Shown here: piece after piece, positions 1-51,004 of the stretch
How positions within the stretch are numbered: the first letter of the stretch is position 1
How the letters are laid out: each line of letters begins with the position of its first letter
Origin: an uncultured Candidatus Binatia bacterium
Lineage (GTDB): Bacteria; Desulfobacterota; Binatia; UBA9968; JAJDTQ01
Length of the DNA: 64,000 bases
Assembly (NCBI GenBank): GCA_965213675.1
Contig: OZ243916.1
Location: forward strand, 3,392,001-3,456,000
Direction of reading: 5' to 3'
Notes under the pieces: model-generated
The model's input: only the letters and a program-made list of their open reading frames with translations
Database searches by the model: none
Told to the model about the DNA's origin: nothing
Program-made: the position numbers and the translations under genes

Positions 1-750
1 GGGAGCCAGGCCCAGTCCGGCGCGCGGGCCGGCGCCGCCCCGTTCCACGCCCTGCGCATGGGCCTGCGCTACGTGAAAGGGCTCGGGGAAGCCGACTGGC
101 TGCGCATCGAGAGTGCCCGGCGCGCCGCCCCGTTCCGTTCCCTGGCCGATCTCGCTTCCCGCACTGGGCTGCGGCAGGACCTCCTCGACCGCCTGGCCCA
201 AGCCGGCGCGTTCACCCCGCGCACCTCCCGGCGGCGCCAGGCCCTGTGGCAGGTCCAGGGACTCCAGGCGGCGGCGGGAGACGCCCTGTCCCTCGAAACC
301 CCCGCAGCGCGGGTCCCGTTCGAGCCCCTGAGCGGCCTCGAGTCCATCGTCTGGGACTACCGCACCGCCGATCACAGCCCCCGGGGCCACCCCCTGGCCC
401 ACCTGCGCCCGCGGATCGCCGCCCAGGGCCTTCCCGACGCCGCCGCCGTGCAGCGCATGCCACACGGCCGCCGCGTGGACTACGCCGGCATCGTCATCTG
501 CCGCCAGCGCCCCAAGACCGCCCGGGGCGTCATCTTCATGACCCTCGAAGACGAAACCGGCTTCGTCAACGTCATCGTGTGGCGCGACGTCTATGAACGG
601 TTCCGGGTCGCCGTCAAGACCCTCTCCTTCATGGGCGTCAGCGGCCCCCTGCAGAACGAGTCCACCGTGGTCCACATCGTCGTGGAGTCGGTATGGCAGC
701 CGGAGATAGGCGCGGAGCCGGTGAGGAGGAAGAGCCGGGATTTTCAGTAG
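1..750 (+). CDS. dnaE2: Error-prone DNA polymerase DnaE2, C-terminal part (5' end outside window)
   Basis: GLRYVKGL HhH region and C-terminal OB-fold motif GIVICRQRPKTARGVIFMTLEDETGFVNVIVW; ends in SRDFQ, a typical DnaE2 tail. Confidence 0.93.
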   Translation, partial: GSQAQSGARAGAAPFHALRMGLRYVKGLGEADWLRIESARRAAPFRSLADLASRTGLRQDLLDRLAQAGAFTPRTSRRRQALWQVQGLQAAAGDALSLETPAARVPFEPLSGLESIVWDYRTADHSPRGHPLAHLRPRIAAQGLPDAAAVQRMPHGRRVDYAGIVICRQRPKTARGVIFMTLEDETGFVNVIVWRDVYERFRVAVKTLSFMGVSGPLQNESTVVHIVVESVWQPEIGAEPVRRKSRDFQ

Positions 751-918
751 GACGGGCTTGGCATCGTCCACAAGCAGCCCACCAGGCAACTGCTTGTTGT
801 TGCTATATTGCTTTCACTGCTGTCCCACAAGAATCAGGTGCCGGGTAGGGGGAGTTGAGGGTGCGTGGGAGGAGGGCAGAGGCAAGGTCCCCTGTGATGT
901 CCGTGTGGCGGGTATTGG

Positions 919-44613: not shown

Positions 44614-45300
44614 TTACTGCAAGGGGATGCGAATGACGACGCCGCCCATCACGTCGCCCGCCTTGAAGTCCGTTCGCGGGCTGTTGGGATGGTTGTTGTG
44701 GCAGGACACGCAGGCGGGTGAAACCGCGACATCGGCATACACCGCGGTGAAGTGCTTGACGCCCCTGATGGTTTCCTCGCCATAGGCGGGCTTCGAGGCA
44801 TTCTCGGCGACACTGTCCAGTCCGGACCGCTCCACTTCGGTTTTGGGAGAGTTGTTCTTGTTGATGGGCCAATTGGACAGGAGGGCGTAGTTGAACGTAT
44901 CGGTCTGCTTGGCGACCAATTGCGCGCCCATGCGGAACATCTGGGCCGGCAGCGGGAGGTCCTTCCGGTCGTGCCAGTCCTCGCTGGCCGTGATCACCTC
45001 ATCCACATCCTGAAGACGGTAGACGACCTGATTCGAATAGACGTTGCGGTCGGCTGACATGAGCGCGAACAGCGCGTCCGCCATGACCCTCGGGGGAATC
45101 CCGGTGGGCGCGCTGTCCGAGTTTCCGTTCGATGCGCCGGAATGACTCGGTGGAGAAACCGCGGCCGACAGGCTGGATTCGTCCGAGGGCGCGCTGTCGC
45201 AGCCGGAAAGGCCCGCAACGAGCGCCATCAGGCTCACGAGGCACACCAGATGGACTCGTTGCGGCAAGGCTCGTGTCGACAAGTGTCTCATCAATCGCAT
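44614..45300 (-). CDS. Tll0287-like (DUF3365) c-type heme lipoprotein, copy 1
   Basis: Lipobox LSGC; LPLPAQMFR; CVSCH; FKAGDVMGGVVIRIP. Confidence 0.85.
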   Translation of the reverse strand: MRLMRHLSTRALPQRVHLVCLVSLMALVAGLSGCDSAPSDESSLSAAVSPPSHSGASNGNSDSAPTGIPPRVMADALFALMSADRNVYSNQVVYRLQDVDEVITASEDWHDRKDLPLPAQMFRMGAQLVAKQTDTFNYALLSNWPINKNNSPKTEVERSGLDSVAENASKPAYGEETIRGVKHFTAVYADVAVSPACVSCHNNHPNSPRTDFKAGDVMGGVVIRIPLQ

Positions 45301-45407
45301 GATACCTTCGCGTAACAAACACGTTTGCCGCTGTCAACGAAATTGGCATCTGGAATTCAAGAAAATGCAAAGAAAATACAAATAAAATAGAAACGTATGC
45401 CGTAGCA

Positions 45408-45443
45408 TGTAACATGCTGCTACAGATGTTGCACTTTGCACTA
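45408..45443. promoter_or_regulatory. Candidate tandem operator/UAS pair
   Basis: TGTAACATGCTGCTACA and TGTTGCACTTTGCACTA, 19 bp apart, resembling 24874-24909. Confidence 0.4.
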
Positions 45444-45532
45444 ATCGCGATATTATTTTGATTCCGCCGGGGGCTAATGGTCGTTAAAAATCACTTGTGC
45501 CATAGGCGGACACGAACGAACCGCGACGCTTG

Positions 45533-45644
45533 AAGGAGACGGAACGGGAGAAGGGACAGAATACGGGTTGGGAGCCGGAATGGGAGACGGAACAGAAGAC
45601 GGAACAGGACAGGGGACAGGAGAAGGAACGGTAGACGGAACCGG
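45533..45644. repeat. Degenerate 12-bp purine-rich tandem repeat (GGAGACGGAACA-like)
   Basis: About 9 imperfect units downstream of the NYN gene. Confidence 0.6.
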
Positions 45645-45688
45645 CGGCCGTGGGCACTCGACGGGAGACGAGGAAACGGGGCGGCGGG

Positions 45689-46204
45689 TCACAGCTTGGC
45701 GAGGCGTTGGCGGCGCGCCCGCTCGGTCTTGGAAGGCTGCCGCGGGTTACCCTTCTTGCGCCGGTCAAGGCTGCCGGGAAAAGGCTCGTCGCCGGTGGCA
45801 TCCTCCTCGGACTCGGCCGCGTCCGGGTCCAACCGCAACTTCGCGAGGAACTCGTTGACGTACACGGCCACCGCCCCGCCGTTCTCCACGCTGCGGCGCA
45901 GGTCCCGGTCGGAGGTCACCACGACGCATGAGTTCCCGATCTCGCGGGCCAGGCGCTCGATCACCGCATCGGCCTTCTCGCCGTAGCGGGAGAACACCAC
46001 TGTCACGTCGCCTGCCTGCTGCCGCGTCTCTTCAATGCGTCCGTTGCGCCAACCGTCGAAGACCGTGGTCACCAAGTGCCCCGTGCGCGCCCGGTACGCC
46101 GCCATCTCCTTGACGAGCGCCGTGCGTTTCGGCTCCAGGTCGCCGCGCAACCCTTGTTCACTGCCGATGACGTTGTAGCCGTCTACGACGATATGGAACG
46201 GCAT
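45689..46204 (-). CDS. NYN domain (YacP/Rae1-like) ribonuclease
   Basis: VDGYNVI, VFDG, ADAVI and VVTSD motifs. Confidence 0.9.
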   Translation of the reverse strand: MPFHIVVDGYNVIGSEQGLRGDLEPKRTALVKEMAAYRARTGHLVTTVFDGWRNGRIEETRQQAGDVTVVFSRYGEKADAVIERLAREIGNSCVVVTSDRDLRRSVENGGAVAVYVNEFLAKLRLDPDAAESEEDATGDEPFPGSLDRRKKGNPRQPSKTERARRQRLAKL

Positions 46205-46517
46205 GGGTGCTCTCTCCGTGGGATTGGAAGTGTCGAACTTGTCAGAAACTTGTCGGAATATAGCCGTTCCGGCCCTTTGCCGCGAATGCCTGTCCTTGTC
46301 GAGGAATGGTCCTCCCTGCCTTTCCGGACCTCGATTGACACGGACACGCGTTGCGGCCTATCTTGATCGCGGTTGAACGGCGCAAACCCCAATCTTGCAG
46401 AAGCCGGAAGCCAGGAGAGGATCGGGAGGCAAGTGGGATGGGATTGGCAGGGGGAGGGGATCTGCAAGGGAGGAGGGGATTGTTGGGGAATGTCGCTGTA
46501 GGTGAAGTTGACTGGCA

Positions 46518-46750
46518 GAGTCGGGTTATCGGAAAACTTTCGAAGCGTCATTCCCGCGAACGCGGGAATCCAGAGCGAGGGACCCACTGGCCGGTGTCCC
46601 CGCCCAGGCCCCGCCTGGATTCCCGCGTTCGCGGGAATGACTTTCCGTAGGCCGTGTCTCGAACCGCTCCCCGCGAACCATTTGCGCGGGGATGACGCTT
46701 CGTAGGCCGTGTCCCGAATCGATCCCCACGAACCTTTTGCAACATTGGGG
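46518..46750. repeat. REP-doublet element (MITE-like unit) related to the 48.9-49.7 kb array
   Basis: Inverted GTCATTCCCGCG..CGCGGGAATCCA pair at 46547-46641; tail CACGAACCTTTTGCAACATTGG. Confidence 0.75.
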
Positions 46751-46841
46751 TAAACGGTGCAGACAGAGCTGTCTGGAGACAGACAGCGACAGACAGCGAC
46801 AGACGATCTCATCCAACATCCCGCATTATTCGAGTCATGCC

Positions 46842-47594
46842 ATGAAAGTACGTGAACGCATTCTTACGCCCGAGAGAGACGGCATCTACGGTTATCTGGC
46901 CGCGCCGGAAAGGGACCAGCCGGGGCCGGCGCTGCTCATGACGCACCAGAACACCGGCGTCACCGACTACATCAAGATCGAGGCGTTGAAGTTCGCCCAC
47001 CTCGGCTACACGGTGGTGATTCCGGACCTGTACTCGATGTTGGGCTACCCTGACGTGACCCACATCCACACCGGCCGGCAGATCCAGGCGCGCACCCGGG
47101 ACGGCGAGTTCGTACGGGTGATCCGGCAGGGCTGGGACTACCTCACTTCGCGAAGCGACGTGGACGCCGGCCGCGTGGCCGTGTCCGGGTACTGTATGGG
47201 CGGGCGCATCGCCATCCACTTCGTCGCGGCGACCCCGGAGGTCCGGGCCTTTGTCGGCTACTACCCCACCATTCGGGACGAACCGGCGACGGAAATCAGG
47301 CCCGTTCATCCGTGTGACGCCGCGCGCCGCATCCAGTGTCCGTCCATCATCCTCTACGGCGTGAACGACCGCATCTCCACCGTGCCCATCCAGCAGCGGG
47401 TGTGGGAAAGCTTCCTCGCCAACGGTCAACCGTTGGAGTGGCACTTCTTTCCTTTCGGCGGCCACGGCTTCGTCGACCCCGGCACCGAGGGCTACCACCC
47501 CCACACCGCCCGTCTCTCCTATCCCCTGGTGGTGGACTTCATGGGCCGGGAGCTCGGCAACGAGGTCGATGGCCTGACGTTCTCGGGAAACTGA
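46842..47594 (+). CDS. Dienelactone hydrolase family protein
   Basis: GYCMGG nucleophile motif and HGF; GYTVVIPDLY. Confidence 0.88.
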   Translation: MKVRERILTPERDGIYGYLAAPERDQPGPALLMTHQNTGVTDYIKIEALKFAHLGYTVVIPDLYSMLGYPDVTHIHTGRQIQARTRDGEFVRVIRQGWDYLTSRSDVDAGRVAVSGYCMGGRIAIHFVAATPEVRAFVGYYPTIRDEPATEIRPVHPCDAARRIQCPSIILYGVNDRISTVPIQQRVWESFLANGQPLEWHFFPFGGHGFVDPGTEGYHPHTARLSYPLVVDFMGRELGNEVDGLTFSGN

Positions 47595-47687
47595 ACCACT
47601 GGCACCGCGCCGCAGTCCGGCATCGCATGACCGCCGTGTCTTCCAGCCCACATGTTTCGACAAAACCGAGAAAGCGAGTTGCCCCTC

Positions 47688-48851
47688 ATGTTCCACAAGG
47701 CCAAACGCATTCAGGAATTACCGCCTTATCTGTTCGCGGAGATCGACCGGAAGAAACGCGCCGCCTTGGCCAAGGGCGTCGACCTCATCGACCTGGGCAT
47801 CGGCGACCCCGACATCCCCACGCCGGGAAGGATCATTCAGAGGCTCACGGAAACCGTGACGCAACCGGCCAACCACCGCTATCCCAGCAGCGCGGGCATG
47901 ATGGAGTTCCGCCAGGCGGTGGCGGACTGGTACGACCGGCGGTTCGGCGTGACGCTGGACCCCGCCACCGAAGTGGTGTCGCTCATCGGCTCCAAGGAGG
48001 GCGTGGCCAACATGGCGGTGGCTTACGTGGACCCCGGCGATGTGGTGCTGGCGCCCACCCCGGCCTACCCCGTTTACGCCATCGGCACCCGGTTCAACGG
48101 CGGCGACGTACACTTTCTGCCGTTGACGCGCGACAACGGTTTCCTGCCGGATCTCGCCGGCATTCCCGCCAGCGTGCTCAAGCGGGCCAAGATGCTGTGG
48201 ATCAACTACCCCAACAACCCCACCGGAGCGGTGGCGGACGAGAGCTTCTTCAGGGACGCGGTGGAGTTCGCCCACAAGCACGGCATCATCCTGTGCCATG
48301 ACGCCGCGTATACCGAGTTGGGCTTCGACGGGTACCGTGCGCCGAGCATCCTGCAGGTGGACGGCGCCAAGGAGGTCGCCATTGAGTTTCACAGCCTCTC
48401 CAAGACCTTCAACATGACCGGCTGGCGCATCGCCATGGCGGTGGGCAGTCCGGAGTTGGTGGGCACTCTGGCGCAGGTGAAGGGCAACGTGGACTCGGGC
48501 GTCTTCCAACCGGTGCAGGAGGCGGCCATCGTCGCCCTCCAGCACGCGGAGGAGTTCCTTGAGCCCATCCGGCAAGTGTACCAGGAGCGGCGCGACGCGG
48601 TGGTGGACGGCCTGCAGCGCGCGGGGTTCGAGCTGCCCGCGCCCCGGGCCACCTTCTACGTCTGGCTGCCCGTGCCCGGGGGATGGACTTCCACGGATTT
48701 CGCCGCGCGCCTGCTCGACGAGGCCGGTATCGTCGCCACTCCCGGCAACGGTTTCGGAGATCCCGGCGAGGGCTTCATCCGCATGACCCTGTGCTCCCCG
48801 GCCGAGCGGTTGCGGGAAGCGGTGGAGCGGCTCCAGCAACTCAGCCTGTAG
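47688..48851 (+). CDS. dapL: LL-diaminopimelate aminotransferase
   Basis: LPPYLFA, LGIGDPD, IGSKEG, NYPNNPTG and SLSKTFNMTGWRI. Confidence 0.88.
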   Translation: MFHKAKRIQELPPYLFAEIDRKKRAALAKGVDLIDLGIGDPDIPTPGRIIQRLTETVTQPANHRYPSSAGMMEFRQAVADWYDRRFGVTLDPATEVVSLIGSKEGVANMAVAYVDPGDVVLAPTPAYPVYAIGTRFNGGDVHFLPLTRDNGFLPDLAGIPASVLKRAKMLWINYPNNPTGAVADESFFRDAVEFAHKHGIILCHDAAYTELGFDGYRAPSILQVDGAKEVAIEFHSLSKTFNMTGWRIAMAVGSPELVGTLAQVKGNVDSGVFQPVQEAAIVALQHAEEFLEPIRQVYQERRDAVVDGLQRAGFELPAPRATFYVWLPVPGGWTSTDFAARLLDEAGIVATPGNGFGDPGEGFIRMTLCSPAERLREAVERLQQLSL

Positions 48852-48859
48852 CGTTCTCC

Positions 48860-49728
48860 CCAGTGCTGCAGAAGCTGGAATCCAGAGCGATGGACCCACC
48901 GGCGGTGTCCCTGCCCCCGCCCCGCCTGGATTCCCGCCCCCGATCGGGGTCGAGGGCAAGCTTTCGCGGGAATGACATTTCGTAGGCTGTGTTTCGGTTC
49001 GCTGGCCACGAACTTTTTGCAACATTGCGGTCAACTAACAGATTTTTGCAAGCTTGGGGTCAAGCTTGGGGTCAATTCACAGATCGTTGCAGTATTGGGG
49101 CCAATACACGGCTCATTGCGACGTTGGGGTCAACTAACAGCCTTTTGCAGCATTGGAGTGGGGTCATCGTAAATCTTACGAAATGTCATTCCCGCGAAAG
49201 CGGGAATCCAGGCGGGGCGGGGGTGGGGAAACCGCGAGTTGGCCCGTCTGCCTGGATTCCCGCCCCCGATCGGGGTCGAGGGCAAGCTTTCGCGGGAATG
49301 ACGCTTCGTAGGCTGTGTTTCGAATCGCTGTCCACGAACTTTTTTGCAACATTGCGGTCAACTAACAGATTTTTGCAAGCTTGGGGCCAACTCACAGCTC
49401 TTTGTGACATTGGGGTCAATTCACAGTTTTTTGCAAGTTTGGGGTTAATTCACAGATCGTTGCAGTATTGGGGCCAATACACGGCTCTTTGCAACGTTGG
49501 AGTCAACTCACGGCTTTTTGCAGCATTGGAGTGGGGTTATCGGAAATTTTACGACACGTCATTCCCGCGAAAGCGGGAATCCAGGCGGGGCTTGGGCGGG
49601 GATACCGCGAGTTGGCCCGTCTGCCTGGATTCCCGCCCCCGATCGGGGTCGAGGGCAAGCTTTCGCGGGAATGACGTGTCGTAGACTGTGTTTCGAATCG
49701 CTGTCCACGAACTTTTTTGCAACACTAG
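48860..49728. repeat. Composite array: three REP-doublet units separated by blocks of degenerate 29-bp tandem repeats
   Basis: Units start at 49018, 49047, 49088, 49117, 49146 and at 49345+29n up to 49519; consensus TGCAACATTGGGGTCAACTCACAGNTTTT. Confidence 0.85.
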
Positions 49729-49930
49729 GGTTCTGCCGGTTCGTCCGCATGATGACATGCGGACGATGATTCGCGGATGACGGTTCGTCGTCGGTCGCGC
49801 GCGACGACCGGCCGCGCGCGACGACGAGCCATGCGGGGGCTAGGCGAGGAATGCCCCGGGCTGGGGCGGTGTACTCAGCCCACGGCGTAAGGAATCCCAT
49901 GCGGATGAACGGGACAGGACGCCAACGCCC

Positions 49931-50470
49931 GTGACGCATCGTGCCTACATCGGGGTGGGCTCCAACCAGGGAGACAAGGAGCGAAACTGCCGCCGCGCCG
50001 TCGAAGAGATGGGGAAGTTCCCGGAGACACGGGTGTGTGCGGTATCGTCCTGGTTCGCCACCGAGCCTTGGGGCGCGGCGAGCACCGAATGGTACGTCAA
50101 CGGGGTGGCCGCCATTGACACGGGCCTGGAACCGAATGTCCTGCTGCAACAATGCCAGACGCTCGAGCGGAAGATGGGTCGCCCGGCCACGCGCCCGCGC
50201 TGGGCGGATCGTGTCATCGATCTGGACATCCTGTTCCATGATGATAGGGTGTTGGAAGGACCCGAGTTGATCGTTCCGCACCCGGAACTCCACCGGCGCC
50301 GATTCGTGCTCGCTCCGCTCTGCGAGCTTGCGCCGGAATTGAAGCACCCGCGCCTGGGAATCCGCATCCGGGAGCTGCTGGACCAATTGGATGACGGAAA
50401 ACGGGTGCGCGAGATCGCCGGTCACGACGCGCGGGAGACGCCTCGACCACCGACGGTGCCGATGAGATGA
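49931..50470 (+). CDS. folK: 2-amino-4-hydroxy-6-hydroxymethyldihydropteridine diphosphokinase
   Basis: AYIGVGSNQG, RVIDLDIL and VPHPELHRRRFVLAPL. Confidence 0.95.
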   Translation: MTHRAYIGVGSNQGDKERNCRRAVEEMGKFPETRVCAVSSWFATEPWGAASTEWYVNGVAAIDTGLEPNVLLQQCQTLERKMGRPATRPRWADRVIDLDILFHDDRVLEGPELIVPHPELHRRRFVLAPLCELAPELKHPRLGIRIRELLDQLDDGKRVREIAGHDARETPRPPTVPMR

Positions 50471-50694
50471 TCCTCAAGTTCCTCATACTGGGCCTGCTCG
50501 TCTACCTCTTCATCGTGCTGTTCTACTCGAGCCTCAAACGCAAGGGGAGCAACCGCGACCCCTCCGAGGGCGACTCCATGGTGCTGGACCCCCACTGCAA
50601 GAGCTACGTGCCCAAGAACGACGCCTACCGCTCCGCCGGCCACTACTTCTGCAGCGAAGAGTGCGCCCGCGCCCACGCCGCCCAACAGGTCTGA
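50467..50694 (+). CDS. Small membrane-anchored TRASH/YHS-like (PP0621-like) protein
   Basis: N-terminal TM followed by MVLDPHC.SYVP...YFCSEEC. Confidence 0.72.
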   Translation: MILKFLILGLLVYLFIVLFYSSLKRKGSNRDPSEGDSMVLDPHCKSYVPKNDAYRSAGHYFCSEECARAHAAQQV

Positions 50695-50713
50695 GTTCCG
50701 CCCCGATGTTGCC

Positions 50714-50873
50714 AGTGTGGTGTCTGGTTAATTCGCGTCATAATCTGCGGGTCTTATTCGCCGTCGGCTGCGTTGCTCTTCCTCGCGTGGTACCCGCCAC
50801 TGCTCGTCATCGCGCCTTGCCGACGACAAAAATCCTCCGCAGATTATGACGCGAATTATCCAGACACCACACT
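50714..50873. mobile_element. MITE-like element, copy 1 (160 bp, about 37-bp TIRs)
   Basis: AGTGTGGTGTCTGGTTAATTCGCGTCATAATCTGCGG and its inverse; near-identical to 55056-55216. Confidence 0.82.
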
Positions 50874-51004
50874 AGGAGCTTCGTGGAGGCGATTCCAAAA
50901 GAGCGATTCCATCCACGGCCTGCTGCACGTCATTGCCGCGAGAGTCTATCCGCGACCCTGATCGGGGGCGGGAGGGGCGGGTTGAGGTCGGCGCCGCAGG
51001 GCGT

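Follow-up and report, generated by a model that had tools for sequence, protein, structure and literature searches.

Introduction

The NIMEs of Neisseria and the BIMEs of E. coli are intergenic mosaics, in which palindromic units of the REP type alternate with other short repeat modules. The insertion sequences of the IS5 family are characterised by a 4-bp duplication at YTAR-like targets. Among the palindromic repeats, the CGTC REPs have been described as predominantly head-to-head dimers lying 20–100 nt apart, and no tyrosine transposase is associated with them in that account (Di Nocera et al. 2013, PMC3733652). According to Chenal et al. (2025, PMC11893778), small nucleases of the GIY-YIG type, named Ssn, have the NTS motif as their target in single-stranded DNA. 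In addition, BrickBuilt, i.e., MITEPgRS/464 of Porphyromonas gingivalis, has been reported as a MITE that contains a minisatellite (Klein et al. 2015, PMC4596501).

The locus described here is an 873-base repeat array in the gap between dapL and folK of an uncultured bacterium labelled as Binatia, and it was analysed within a window of 64,000 nucleotides, that is, the whole stretch of DNA under study; coordinates refer to this window unless a contig is named. The array is quite likely one copy of a small non-coding MITE, the product of a single insertion, in which the right end has been multiplied. It is selfish DNA of known kinds and not a new system. For annotation this means that, once explained in this way, the 873 bases need not be pursued as a CRISPR-like locus, as iterons or as a regulatory RNA.

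Structure of the array between dapL and folK

The array spans 48858–49730 and consists of three hairpin-pair units, blocks of four and six degenerate 29-mers between them, and inverted outer ends (Table 1). The initial annotation had described three REP-doublet units, the first truncated at its 5′ side, alternating with four and six 29-mers, and all of these are present in the sequence. It had also read the outer ends as inverted, with which 11 of its 14 letters agree, and had seen the right end of the unit inside each 29-mer; a degenerate copy of this end does start every one of them.

Units 2 and 3 are 93% identical (169/182 positions), and unit 1, for which the second MITE copy was compared as well, matches unit 2 at 83/89 positions over 48926–49013. 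The NTS hairpin of unit 2 (49184–49211) has one mismatch to the published motif, and that of unit 3 (49557–49584) corresponds exactly to the published consensus. In block 1, the repeat r2' (49043–49083) holds a 12-nt internal duplication, and block 2 is reported by Tandem Repeats Finder with a period of 29, 6.5 copies and 73% matches. Both unit/block junctions of the array are identical (GCAGCATTGGAGTGGGGT). Since the 29-mers stand head to tail without unique spacers, the earlier decision against CRISPR was correct; iterons and a replicon satellite were rejected together with CRISPR, there being no spacers and no rep or cas gene nearby in the ORF list of the window.

Table 1. Coordinates of the array, of its flanking genes and of the second MITE copy in the window.
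Feature	Position	Strand	Remarks
Second, simple MITE copy (364 bp)	46387–46750	+	left end, left module, NTS dimer, duplicated right module, right end
dapL (LL-diaminopimelate aminotransferase)	47652–48851	+	TIGR03540, 601.6 bits (cut-off 593.25); Pfam Aminotran_1_2 match
Target-site duplication, left copy, TTCT	48854–48857	.	identical to 49731–49734
Left terminal inverted repeat of the MITE, CCCCAGTGCTGCAGAA	48858–48873	+	3 mismatches to the family consensus
Unit 1	48874–49013	+	left module and left NTS hairpin deleted; spacer, long-loop NTS hairpin (48926–48977) and right module kept
29-mer block 1	49014–49159	+	four 29-mers, then an 18-nt end-only copy (49142–49159)
Repeats of block 1: r1; r2'; r3; r4	49014–49042; 49043–49083; 49084–49112; 49113–49141	+	
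Unit 2	49160–49340	+	left flank module, NTS hairpin, spacer, opposite-direction long-loop NTS hairpin (49252–49303), right module
29-mer block 2	49341–49532	+	six full repeats (49341–49514) and an end-only copy (49515–49532)
Unit 3	49533–49714	+	NTS hairpin (49557–49584), long-loop NTS hairpin (49625–49676), right module
Right terminal inverted repeat, TTTTGCAACACTAGGG	49715–49730	+	2 mismatches to the consensus
Target-site duplication, right copy, TTCT	49731–49734	.	
folK (HPPK)	49931–50470	+	TIGR01498, 124 bits

Flanking genes and the empty site

The neighbouring genes had been named dapL and folK, and the matches to TIGR03540 (601.6 bits) and TIGR01498 (124 bits) bear these names out. The stop codon of dapL lies 6 nt upstream of the MITE, and folK is found about 1.08 kb from dapL in this genome. 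In all 18 same-genus genomes compared (18/18), the dapL and folK alignments are at most 11 nt apart, so that the MITE site is empty there; at the sequence level, the distance from the dapL stop to the folK start is 4–40 nt in 11 relatives' loci and less than 10 nt in nine of them. The displacement of folK by about 1.08 kb thus offers a natural test of the effects of an insertion on a tightly coupled gene pair.

The position of the array within a gene pair that is tight in relatives might also suggest a working regulatory element, that is, a protein-binding array or structured RNA that is formed by the 29-mer blocks or the whole array and controls dapL/folK. Promoters are possible in MITEs with internal repeats, for which BrickBuilt is an example in its published description (PMC4596501). 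Against such a role, the array is absent from 27/27 other genomes of the genus, and a second HPPK-domain gene exists elsewhere in the genome. Moreover, no sigma-70-like promoter or terminator was matched in a scan of 48700–50050, and the Rfam scan of 45000–51000 gave no family at threshold, the only signal being sub-threshold microRNA-hairpin noise on the MITE copy at 46387–46750. The folding and the divergence of the repeats, which also bear on this question, are considered with the 29-mers below.

The MITE family and its target sites

The ends of the array belong to a MITE family with 16-nt terminal inverted repeats (consensus CCCCAATGTTGCARAA), of which 27 complete copies of 142–873 bp were collected, four relatives contributing 20 and this genome the other seven, with three of the rows duplicating the same locus. 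Perfect 4-bp target duplications flank 19 of the 27 and are absent from the other eight; three of the four bases match in 6/27, and the control gave 0/27. The targets are mostly YTAR-like (CTAA, TTAA, TTAG, TTCA). Duplications of 4 bp at such sites would fit an IS5-type DDE transposase.

With up to three mismatches, the end 16-mer occurs 69 times in the genome and six times in the reversed control, and it always terminates one of two conserved end modules. A 25-nt pattern of the left end has 14 occurrences in this genome and is present in 7/28 genomes of the genus; among 185,579 species genomes, the left end was found only in five MAGs of this genus. That is to say, the family is dispersed in the genome and restricted to this genus. 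A full-text search by sequence strings, which returned a Neisseria paper only, and a search of the IS/MITE literature on Binatia/Binatota gave no description of it. Within these searches, it represents an undescribed, genus-restricted MITE family with clean 4-bp duplications in an uncultured, Binatia-labelled lineage.

Two further copies illustrate the family. A solo unit had been noted earlier at 46518–46750; the unit does exist, but its extent was set too small, and the copy runs over 46387–46750 with inverted ends of its own. It carries a head-to-head NTS dimer at 46546–46573 and 46615–46642, its inverted-repeat arms are 27 nt long and 100% complementary, and its flanks are CAAA and TAAA. 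The gene order around it differs in relatives, so that no precise empty site can be read. The 142-bp copy is missing from the matching site in 8/9 relatives' loci, namely those in which both flank anchors could be placed, and the intergenic DNA there is too diverged to show a single-copy target.

NTS hairpins and the GIY-YIG gene

The palindromes of the array match the published NTS motif (also dRS3 or CGTC-1 REP), CGTCATTCCCGCGMAVGCGGGAATCYRG. The earlier label of "REP doublets" is therefore right in the broad sense, the palindromes being head-to-head dimers of the CGTC-1 REP (NTS, dRS3) family. In the whole genome, CGTCATTCCCGCGMAVGCGGGAATCYRG was found 31 times exactly, 52 times with one mismatch and 26 times with two (109 in total), against none in the control, and the motif occurs in 27/28 genomes of the genus. 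The 28-nt consensus is present letter for letter in unit 3 and also at 46546–46573. About 50 pairs are arranged as head-to-head dimers with gaps of 25–65 nt (mode 50–55), and 59 copies bear a 28-nt insert in the loop. The NTS hairpins are a repeat separate from, and much more abundant than, the MITE that carries them, and this lineage joins the known hosts of the NTS/Ssn hairpin repeats.

A 97-aa GIY-YIG ORF (PF01541, 56 bits) is located away from the array, at G000:C1:2885313-2885606, and its Tyr, Tyr and Glu are spaced like the residues that were mutated in SsnA. Long-loop NTS variants and variants with three mismatches lie 190–600 nt downstream of it, and up to 700 nt upstream and 1.1 kb downstream no strict NTS was found. 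The gene is present in 10/28 genomes of the genus. A search of NCBIfam gave no family for it, and the search of solved structures returned only a spurious WD40 match.

Transposase and RAYT genes

It had been proposed to look for a transposase or RAYT gene flanked by the same ends, and none was found in this genome. All 13 PF01609 matches of the genome were inspected for inverted repeats, and none of them has matching ends; PF13701, PF13546, PF13610 and PF01548 gave no match in this genome. Across six genomes (this one and five relatives), not one pair of these ends encloses a transposase gene. The single PF01797 (Y1_Tnp) match, at C1:3211923-3212258, is not flanked by such hairpins, and the closest half-site is 2.3 kb distant. 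Since no transposase with matching ends is present, the element of the array is probably immobile now.

The only two pairs of ends 1.5 kb apart in the five relatives were considered as candidate insertion sequences and rejected, as they proved to be MITEs interrupted by IS110-family elements. The IS110-type element inserts exactly within the NTS hairpin. Selfish DNA is stacked in three layers at one place: the MITE, the NTS dimers that it carries and, in relatives, the IS110-type element within the NTS hairpin.

The 29-nt repeats

Each 29-mer is composed of the right terminal repeat of the MITE and 13 further nucleotides. Ten of the 13 end copies in the same direction lie within three mismatches of TTTTGCAACATTGGGG. 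When the full 29-mer was scanned as a weight matrix, 15 sites of the genome scored above 18, compared with none in the reversed contig C1 (maximum 14.7); together with the excess of the end 16-mer over its reversed control, this excludes chance for the repeats. Ten of the 15 sites are the array's own repeats (32–45.5) and one is the half-shifted r2' (18.3), and the remaining four (18.6–25.5) are single right ends of MITEs elsewhere, with no tandem copy. The genome-wide search for the 29-mer, which the initial annotation had recommended, thus places the array at this locus only; the scan gave no other 29-mer array in the rest of the genome or in 27 relatives, and each of 62 metagenome loci has at most one copy.

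Among the 29-mers, the pairwise identity is 74% in the end part and 72% in the tail part, that is, the two parts have diverged equally. The substitutions comprise 18 transitions and 10 transversions, and the repeats of block 1 pair one-to-one with repeats of block 2. Compared with shuffled sequences, the whole array folds far better (z = −11.4), which would favour a structured RNA, whereas a 29-mer block alone is not significant (z = −1.4); the generic NTS dimers account for the strong fold of the array as a whole. With repeats that decay evenly along their length, a regulatory function for the blocks or for the array is very improbable, and the earlier suggestion of protein-binding sites or structured RNA is not supported, given the absence of the array from relatives, the even divergence, the fold of the block, which is no better than that of shuffles, and the Rfam result.

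The 13-nt tail does not match the present right flank of the array. Aligned by eye with the inner right module, it shows about 8/11 matches with two gaps, which is not decisive. The amplification may be older than the insertion at this site, or else the inner right module may be the source of the tail; the registers are indistinguishable.

It could also be supposed that the 13 end copies were made by the transposition machinery itself, either by repeated one-ended or self-targeted insertion beside the element's own end or by re-copying of a nicked end, and by extension the extra ends could act as alternative ends. In each 29-mer, the full-length end is followed by a YYAA 4-mer (TCAA, TTAA or CCAA) that resembles the target duplications of the family. 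Moreover, one relative, G031, has an independent 30-bp tandem duplication of two units that includes the right end of the MITE, as well as a junction of the form end-TTAG-inverted solo end. The register in G031 is different, however (11 inner nucleotides, the end, then 3 nt), and the array contains neither left ends in its interior nor paired duplications there. Its identical unit/block junctions are those expected from one tandem duplication. Since the array is confined to one copy among at least 27 complete ones, copying of the end is no regular by-product, and the variable number of 29-mers that alternative ends would predict is seen in no other copy. An origin through the transposition machinery is accordingly considered unlikely.

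Assembly of the array

The MAG has an estimated contamination of 8% and duplicated contigs, and no independent contig spans the whole array, which could suggest an artefact of a repeat-rich assembly, that is, a collapsed or chimeric joining of dispersed copies. Against this, each distinct junction is matched exactly by short contigs from two to four runs, apart from one junction seen in a single run (X3). The junctions confirmed are those of dapL with the left end, unit 1 with r1, block 1 with unit 2, unit 2 with block 2, block 2 with unit 3 and unit 3 with the flank, as well as those inside block 2, and the passage from 49695 into the unique right flank is contained in a short contig in 4/4 runs. 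These contigs come from four public runs (X1–X4) of one study, which may be of the source sample, and they therefore support the reads and do not amount to an independent sample. Full 29-mers occur nowhere else in the genome, so the array was not borrowed from another locus. An artefact is thus extremely unlikely, and the higher-order copy number within the array is that of the assembly, as no short contig covers its whole length.

Proposed origin

The most probable origin combines the insertion of a MITE with the growth of its right end. The MITE inserted between the stop codon of dapL and the start of folK. The right terminal repeat and the 13 bases after it would have been tandemly duplicated to about 6.5 copies, possibly by replication slippage or unequal recombination, and the 29-mer copies would have decayed neutrally. 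Subsequently, a segment of about 373 nt, comprising a hairpin unit together with a 29-mer block, may have been tandemly duplicated through short GAGT homology, and deletions would have taken away 58 nt of block 1 as well as the left module of unit 1. The inverted repeats, the target duplication, the family, the empty sites, the identity of the motif and the restriction of the 29-mer array to this locus are direct observations; the enzyme family, the sequence of events and slippage as the mechanism are inferred from them. As the last unit ends in a single end without a block, an extra deletion must be assumed.

This agrees with one part of the initial annotation, that of a MITE amplifying its own end: the terminal inverted repeats, the 4-bp duplication, the empty site in 18/18 genomes and the 29-mer built of the end and 13 nt all point to it. 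Its other version, an element that repeatedly inserts at its own end, fails on the absence of internal left ends and internal duplications and on the identical unit/block junctions, which indicate one tandem duplication and disfavour separate insertions.

It is further conceivable, though quite improbable, that amplification of the end is a by-product of transposon processing, in which the cleaved right end is copied again or repaired with slippage, giving rows of complete terminal repeats with a target-like 4-mer behind each. If so, an element with several ends might use them as alternatives in transposition or titrate the transposase, and the 30-bp right-end duplication in G031 would mark the beginning of such a process. 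On the preferred reading of a MITE with a tandemly multiplied end, it is a minor curiosity for researchers of transposition that a transposon's own end serves as the unit of an array.

Comparison with known systems

Like NIMEs and BIMEs, the array is an intergenic mosaic of palindromic units and short repeat modules. It differs from them in being bounded by transposon ends and a target duplication, and the module that is not palindromic is a tandem repeat peculiar to this locus, not a member of a dispersed family.

The likeness to NTS/SsnA concerns the consensus, which is the same letter for letter, the abundance of the motif, its arrangement mostly as head-to-head dimers about 50 nt apart and the presence of a 97-aa single-domain GIY-YIG gene as a candidate nuclease (PMC11893778, PMC3733652). 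As in the published account of the CGTC REPs, no tyrosine transposase is associated with the hairpins here (PMC3733652). Compared with the NTS/SsnA systems as described (PMC11893778), the host here is an uncultured, Binatia-labelled bacterium, 59 copies have the 28-nt loop insert, and the GIY-YIG gene has variant hairpins downstream only and none upstream. The gene is also much less widespread in the genus than the motif (10/28 against 27/28 genomes).

The IS5 family is a putative source of the MITE, which resembles it in the 4-bp duplications and the YTAR-like targets and has 7–8 inner nucleotides in common with the ends of ISPg4 and ISNme1 (PMC4596501). In Table 2 of that paper, these ends are given as GAGACTGTTGCA for ISPg4 and GAGACCTTTGCAAAA for ISNme1, and the inner TGTTGCA or TTGCAAAA is common to them and the ends here (PMC4596501). 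The outer 6 nt of the MITE ends differ, and in the six genomes no IS5-type or other transposase is enclosed by a pair of them.

The closest precedent is the BrickBuilt MITE with its minisatellite. As described in PMC4596501, BrickBuilt is likewise a small, intergenic element that lacks a transposase, with inverted ends of the IS5-family type and a limited host range, and the tandem direct repeats inside it, of 23 or 41 nt, are spacerless like those of the array (PMC4596501). The differences from that description lie in the repeat unit, which here is the element's own terminal repeat with 13 nt, in the NTS hairpin dimers that the element also carries and in the target duplications, which are regularly 4 bp here and irregular in BrickBuilt (PMC4596501). 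Finally, the internal tandem repeat of BrickBuilt is reported throughout its family (PMC4596501), whereas the array described here is found in one of at least 27 complete copies.

Structure and Assembly Support of the Array

The array between dapL (TIGR03540, 601.6 bits) and folK (TIGR01498, 124 bits) is 873 bp long and consists of hairpin units and blocks of 29-mers enclosed by 16-nt inverted ends. The window corresponds to C1:3392001-3456000 of the present genome (G000; 4.53 Mb, 21 contigs). Reading of 48600-49900 and 46400-46850, together with repeat finders, bore out the initial annotation of this region as hairpin doublets alternating with 29-bp repeats. The true extent of the solo unit noted there is 46387-46750, with both ends included. 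Block 2 was detected by Tandem Repeats Finder with a period of 29, 6.5 copies and 73% matches.

Table. Features of the array (window coordinates) and the GIY-YIG ORF
Feature	Position	Details
Left end	48858-48873	
Unit 1	48874-49013	
Block 1	49014-49159	r1, r2′ (with a 12-nt internal duplication), r3, r4, 18-nt end-only copy
Unit 2	49160-49340	
Block 2	49341-49532	six 29-mers, one end-only copy
Unit 3	49533-49714	
Right end	49715-49730	
GIY-YIG ORF	C1:2885313-2885606 (locus L050, 1489-1782), outside the window	97 aa, single-domain; PF01541, 56 bits

Four sequencing runs of one study contain about 70% of the sampled words and may be the assembly's own source. Exact short-contig matches cover 48653-48941, 48949-49043, 49277-49370, 49357-49476, 49447-49585 and 49695-50100, and 49085-49212 is matched exactly in one run only; no short contig from the four runs spans the whole array. 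The array junctions are therefore supported, and the copy number is that given by the assembly. Contig C4 duplicates part of C1:295000-313000 with a few differences, and the shared part takes in two MITE copies as well as an HPPK-domain gene; this fits the estimated 8% contamination or strain heterogeneity of the MAG.

Ends and Target Duplications of the MITE Family

The 16-mer TTTTGCAACATTGGGG (up to 3 mismatches) was found 69 times in the genome versus 6 times in a reversed-sequence control. Every 16-mer of this type closes one of two conserved modules, either the right module, containing ...GGGAATGACGCTTCGTAGGCCGTGTTTCGAATCGCTCTCCACGAAC..., or, on the opposite strand, the roughly 95-nt left module, and inverted module pairs delimit elements of 142-873 bp. 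When 27 complete copies were compared (7 from G000 and 20 from four relatives; three rows repeat counted loci, L069 being L063, L068 being L061 and the C4 copy being that of C1:312097), the flanking 4-mers were identical in 19, matched at three of four letters in 6 and at one of four in 2; for the next 4-mers outward, the control, identity was seen in 0 of 27. The duplicated 4-mers are mostly CTAA, TTAA, TTAG and TTCA. Since TTCT flanks the whole array on both sides, the array is one element. The 4-bp YTAR-like duplication presumably fits IS5-type elements. The inner 7-8 nt of the ends are shared with those of the IS5-family ISPg4 and ISNme1, as tabulated in PMC4596501; this is a resemblance only.

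The initial annotation suggested looking for a transposase carrying the same ends, and none was found in G000 or among the end pairs of five relatives. The PF01609 transposase domain has 13 matches in G000, with ends that are different or not detectable, and PF13701, PF13546, PF13610 and PF01548 have no match there. Among the five relatives, only G034 and G036 have correctly oriented ends separated by over 1 kb (about 1.5 kb each), and these pairs enclose an IS110-type ORF of 327-331 aa. This ORF was rejected as the MITE's own transposase: alignment of the G034 locus with an uninterrupted copy shows a MITE that has received a 1212-bp insertion exactly in the hairpin, with the junction CGTCAT[TCCC]–insert–[TCCC]GCGAAAGCGGGAATCCAG.

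Diverged copies of the MITE ends also delimit a 545-bp element (G000:C1:2871603-2872146; near-identical copy at C2:7785-8325), which lacks a target duplication and has an ORF of about 100 aa on the minus strand (MTEAIAFDTHRFVKRL...) that may resemble DUF1640. On its right, the element directly adjoins the left flank module of an NTS hairpin unit, at the same position as in the array's internal junctions. At another locus (L033; G031:C56, locus 440-490), the MITE left end is followed by TTAG and an inverted solo 16-nt end, so the abutted ends are separated by a 4-nt gap, which is the target-duplication length.

Empty Sites and Distribution

Thirty relatives were searched with 47652-50500. In each of the 18 same-genus genomes, at most 11 nt separate the dapL and folK alignments. 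The other 12 genomes, which are more distant, match dapL only, and folK starts 4-40 nt past the dapL stop in the 11 relatives' loci examined at sequence level. Therefore, G000 carries about 1.04 kb extra, namely the 873-bp element and 169 nt. The latter stretch (49731-49899), between the MITE and folK, is unique in G000 and absent from the relatives; it holds the hairpin GTCCGCATGATGACATGCGGAC and, at 49792-49825, a 17-nt tandem pair of GC palindromes. For the 142-bp copy (C1:1118788-1118929), both flank anchors could be placed in 8 of 9 relatives' loci, and in these 8 the matching intergenic site lacks the element; three of these genomes carry the family elsewhere.

When up to 3 mismatches are allowed, 7 of the 28 genus genomes carry the 25-nt left end, with 14 copies in G000, 18 in G031, 14 in G001, 12 in G034, 3 in G036 and one each in G015 and G018. 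An exact IUPAC scan of one genome per species (185,579 species) gave 14 loci, all in five MAGs of the same genus.

The two MITE copies of the window have a dienelactone-hydrolase-family gene between them (46840-47594). In 10 of the 11 relatives' loci, an NYN-domain gene directly adjoins dapL without it, and G008 has a homologous piece beyond the NYN gene, on its opposite side; this placement suggests that the MITEs were associated with a local rearrangement. Two further short tandem repeats occur near the second MITE copy: one with a degenerate 12-nt unit, GGAGACGGAATG (8.8 copies, 45535-45641), and, immediately right of the MITE, GACAGACAGC (2.7 copies, 46778-46804).

Hairpins and the GIY-YIG ORF

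The Neisseria Transformation Sequence (NTS) is defined as CGTCATTCCCGCGMAVGCGGGAATCYRG by Chenal et al. 2025 (PMC11893778), who describe SsnA, a 94-aa GIY-YIG protein cutting single-stranded DNA beside NTS, and report that both NTS-like repeats and homologues of ssnA are found in many phyla. The family is named CGTC-1 and equated with dRS3 by Di Nocera et al. 2013 (PMC3733652), who report that head-to-head dimers predominate and that no dedicated transposase was found. The same applies here: the initial annotation envisaged a RAYT gene flanked by the same hairpins, and the only Y1 (IS200-like) transposase-domain gene of G000 (G000:C1:3211290-3212290, minus strand, about 330 aa, with a C-terminal extension) has no flanking hairpin repeat.

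The exact consensus occurs at 49557-49584 and 46546-46573, and with one mismatch at 49184-49211. Across G000 the motif occurs 31 times exactly, 52 times with one mismatch and 26 times with two (never in the control), and a looser palindrome census gave 284 copies versus 32 in the control, with loops of 4 nt in 136 and 28 nt in 59; the commonest 28-nt loop is CCCCGATCGGGGTCGAGGGCAAGCTTTC (15 copies per orientation), and about 50 dimers are spaced about 50 nt. Only 22 of the 284 palindromes have a MITE end within 250 nt; the hairpins are therefore passengers in the MITE, and it is not chiefly the MITE that carries them.

The 97-aa GIY-YIG ORF is a candidate Ssn nuclease, in which Tyr7, Tyr18 and Glu65 are spaced like Y6, Y17 and E64, mutated in SsnA (PMC11893778). 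Hairpin variants lie 190-600 nt downstream of it, where two near-identical blocks of about 490 nt combine long-loop NTS dimers with tandem repeats of about 70 nt. The motif occurs in 27 of 28 genus genomes (0-493 copies), and the ORF, with that of G000 as query, in 10 of 28. The same query detected no such ORF in G034, G001 or G013, despite their 250-360 motif copies, so the association of motif and ORF is loose in the genus.

The IS110-family element lies exactly within the NTS hairpin of the MITE at L017 (G034:C1:3505475-3508986) and L018 (G036:C1:2234439-2237978). It is 1212 bp long in G034, with TCCC on each side, its ORF (327-331 aa) starts ...YAGIDVGK, and its left end mimics what lies upstream of the hairpin. 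A parallel is the targeting of dRS3 by a recombinase in Neisseria, mentioned in PMC11893778.

The 29-mers and Their Proposed History

Each 29-mer consists of the right terminal repeat (16-17 nt), a YYAA 4-mer and 9 more bases. A genome-wide search for it, as the initial annotation proposed, located full 29-mers at the array only and single ends elsewhere (weight matrix; control maximum 14.7). In 27 other genus genomes, the only match to the block is one 22-nt end. A degenerate junction pattern was found at 62 metagenome loci, a single time at each, and none of them has two or more weight-matrix matches. In block 2, the end and tail parts have diverged equally (74% versus 72% mean pairwise identity), with 18 transitions and 10 transversions. 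Shuffled sequences fold as well as the block does (z = −1.4), and the whole-array value (z = −11.4) is due to the hairpin dimers.

Between the blocks, r1 of block 1 is identical to r1 of block 2 and r3 to r5, r4 is similar to r6, the end-only copies are similar, and r2′ combines r2 and r4 in one hybrid repeat. Units 2 and 3 share 93% identity, and both unit/block junctions read GCAGCATTGGAGTGGGGT. The simplest history would have four steps: an old tandem amplification of the end plus 13 nt; neutral decay of the repeats; a recent event that duplicated about 373 nt in tandem via GAGT microhomology; and finally a 58-nt loss and a 12-nt slip in block 1, along with a deletion between GCTGGAA and GCGGGAA that would have taken unit 1's left module. 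The sequence now flanking the array on the right differs from the 13-nt tail, so the amplification may have come either before or after the element's arrival at this site. A G031 copy (L032; G031:C136, about 680-760, minus strand) has an independent 30-bp right-end tandem duplication (CTTCACGAACTYTTTGCAACATTGAGGTT twice) in a different register from the 29-mers; thus, right-end tandem duplications recur.

Comparison with Known Systems

The array hairpins are the described NTS/dRS3/CGTC-1 repeat. The closest described system is the BrickBuilt/PgRS-type MITE, in which IS5-like ends surround a minisatellite (PMC4596501). Two features are particular to the present array: the element's own end serves as the minisatellite unit, and the minisatellite is confined to a single copy of the MITE family.
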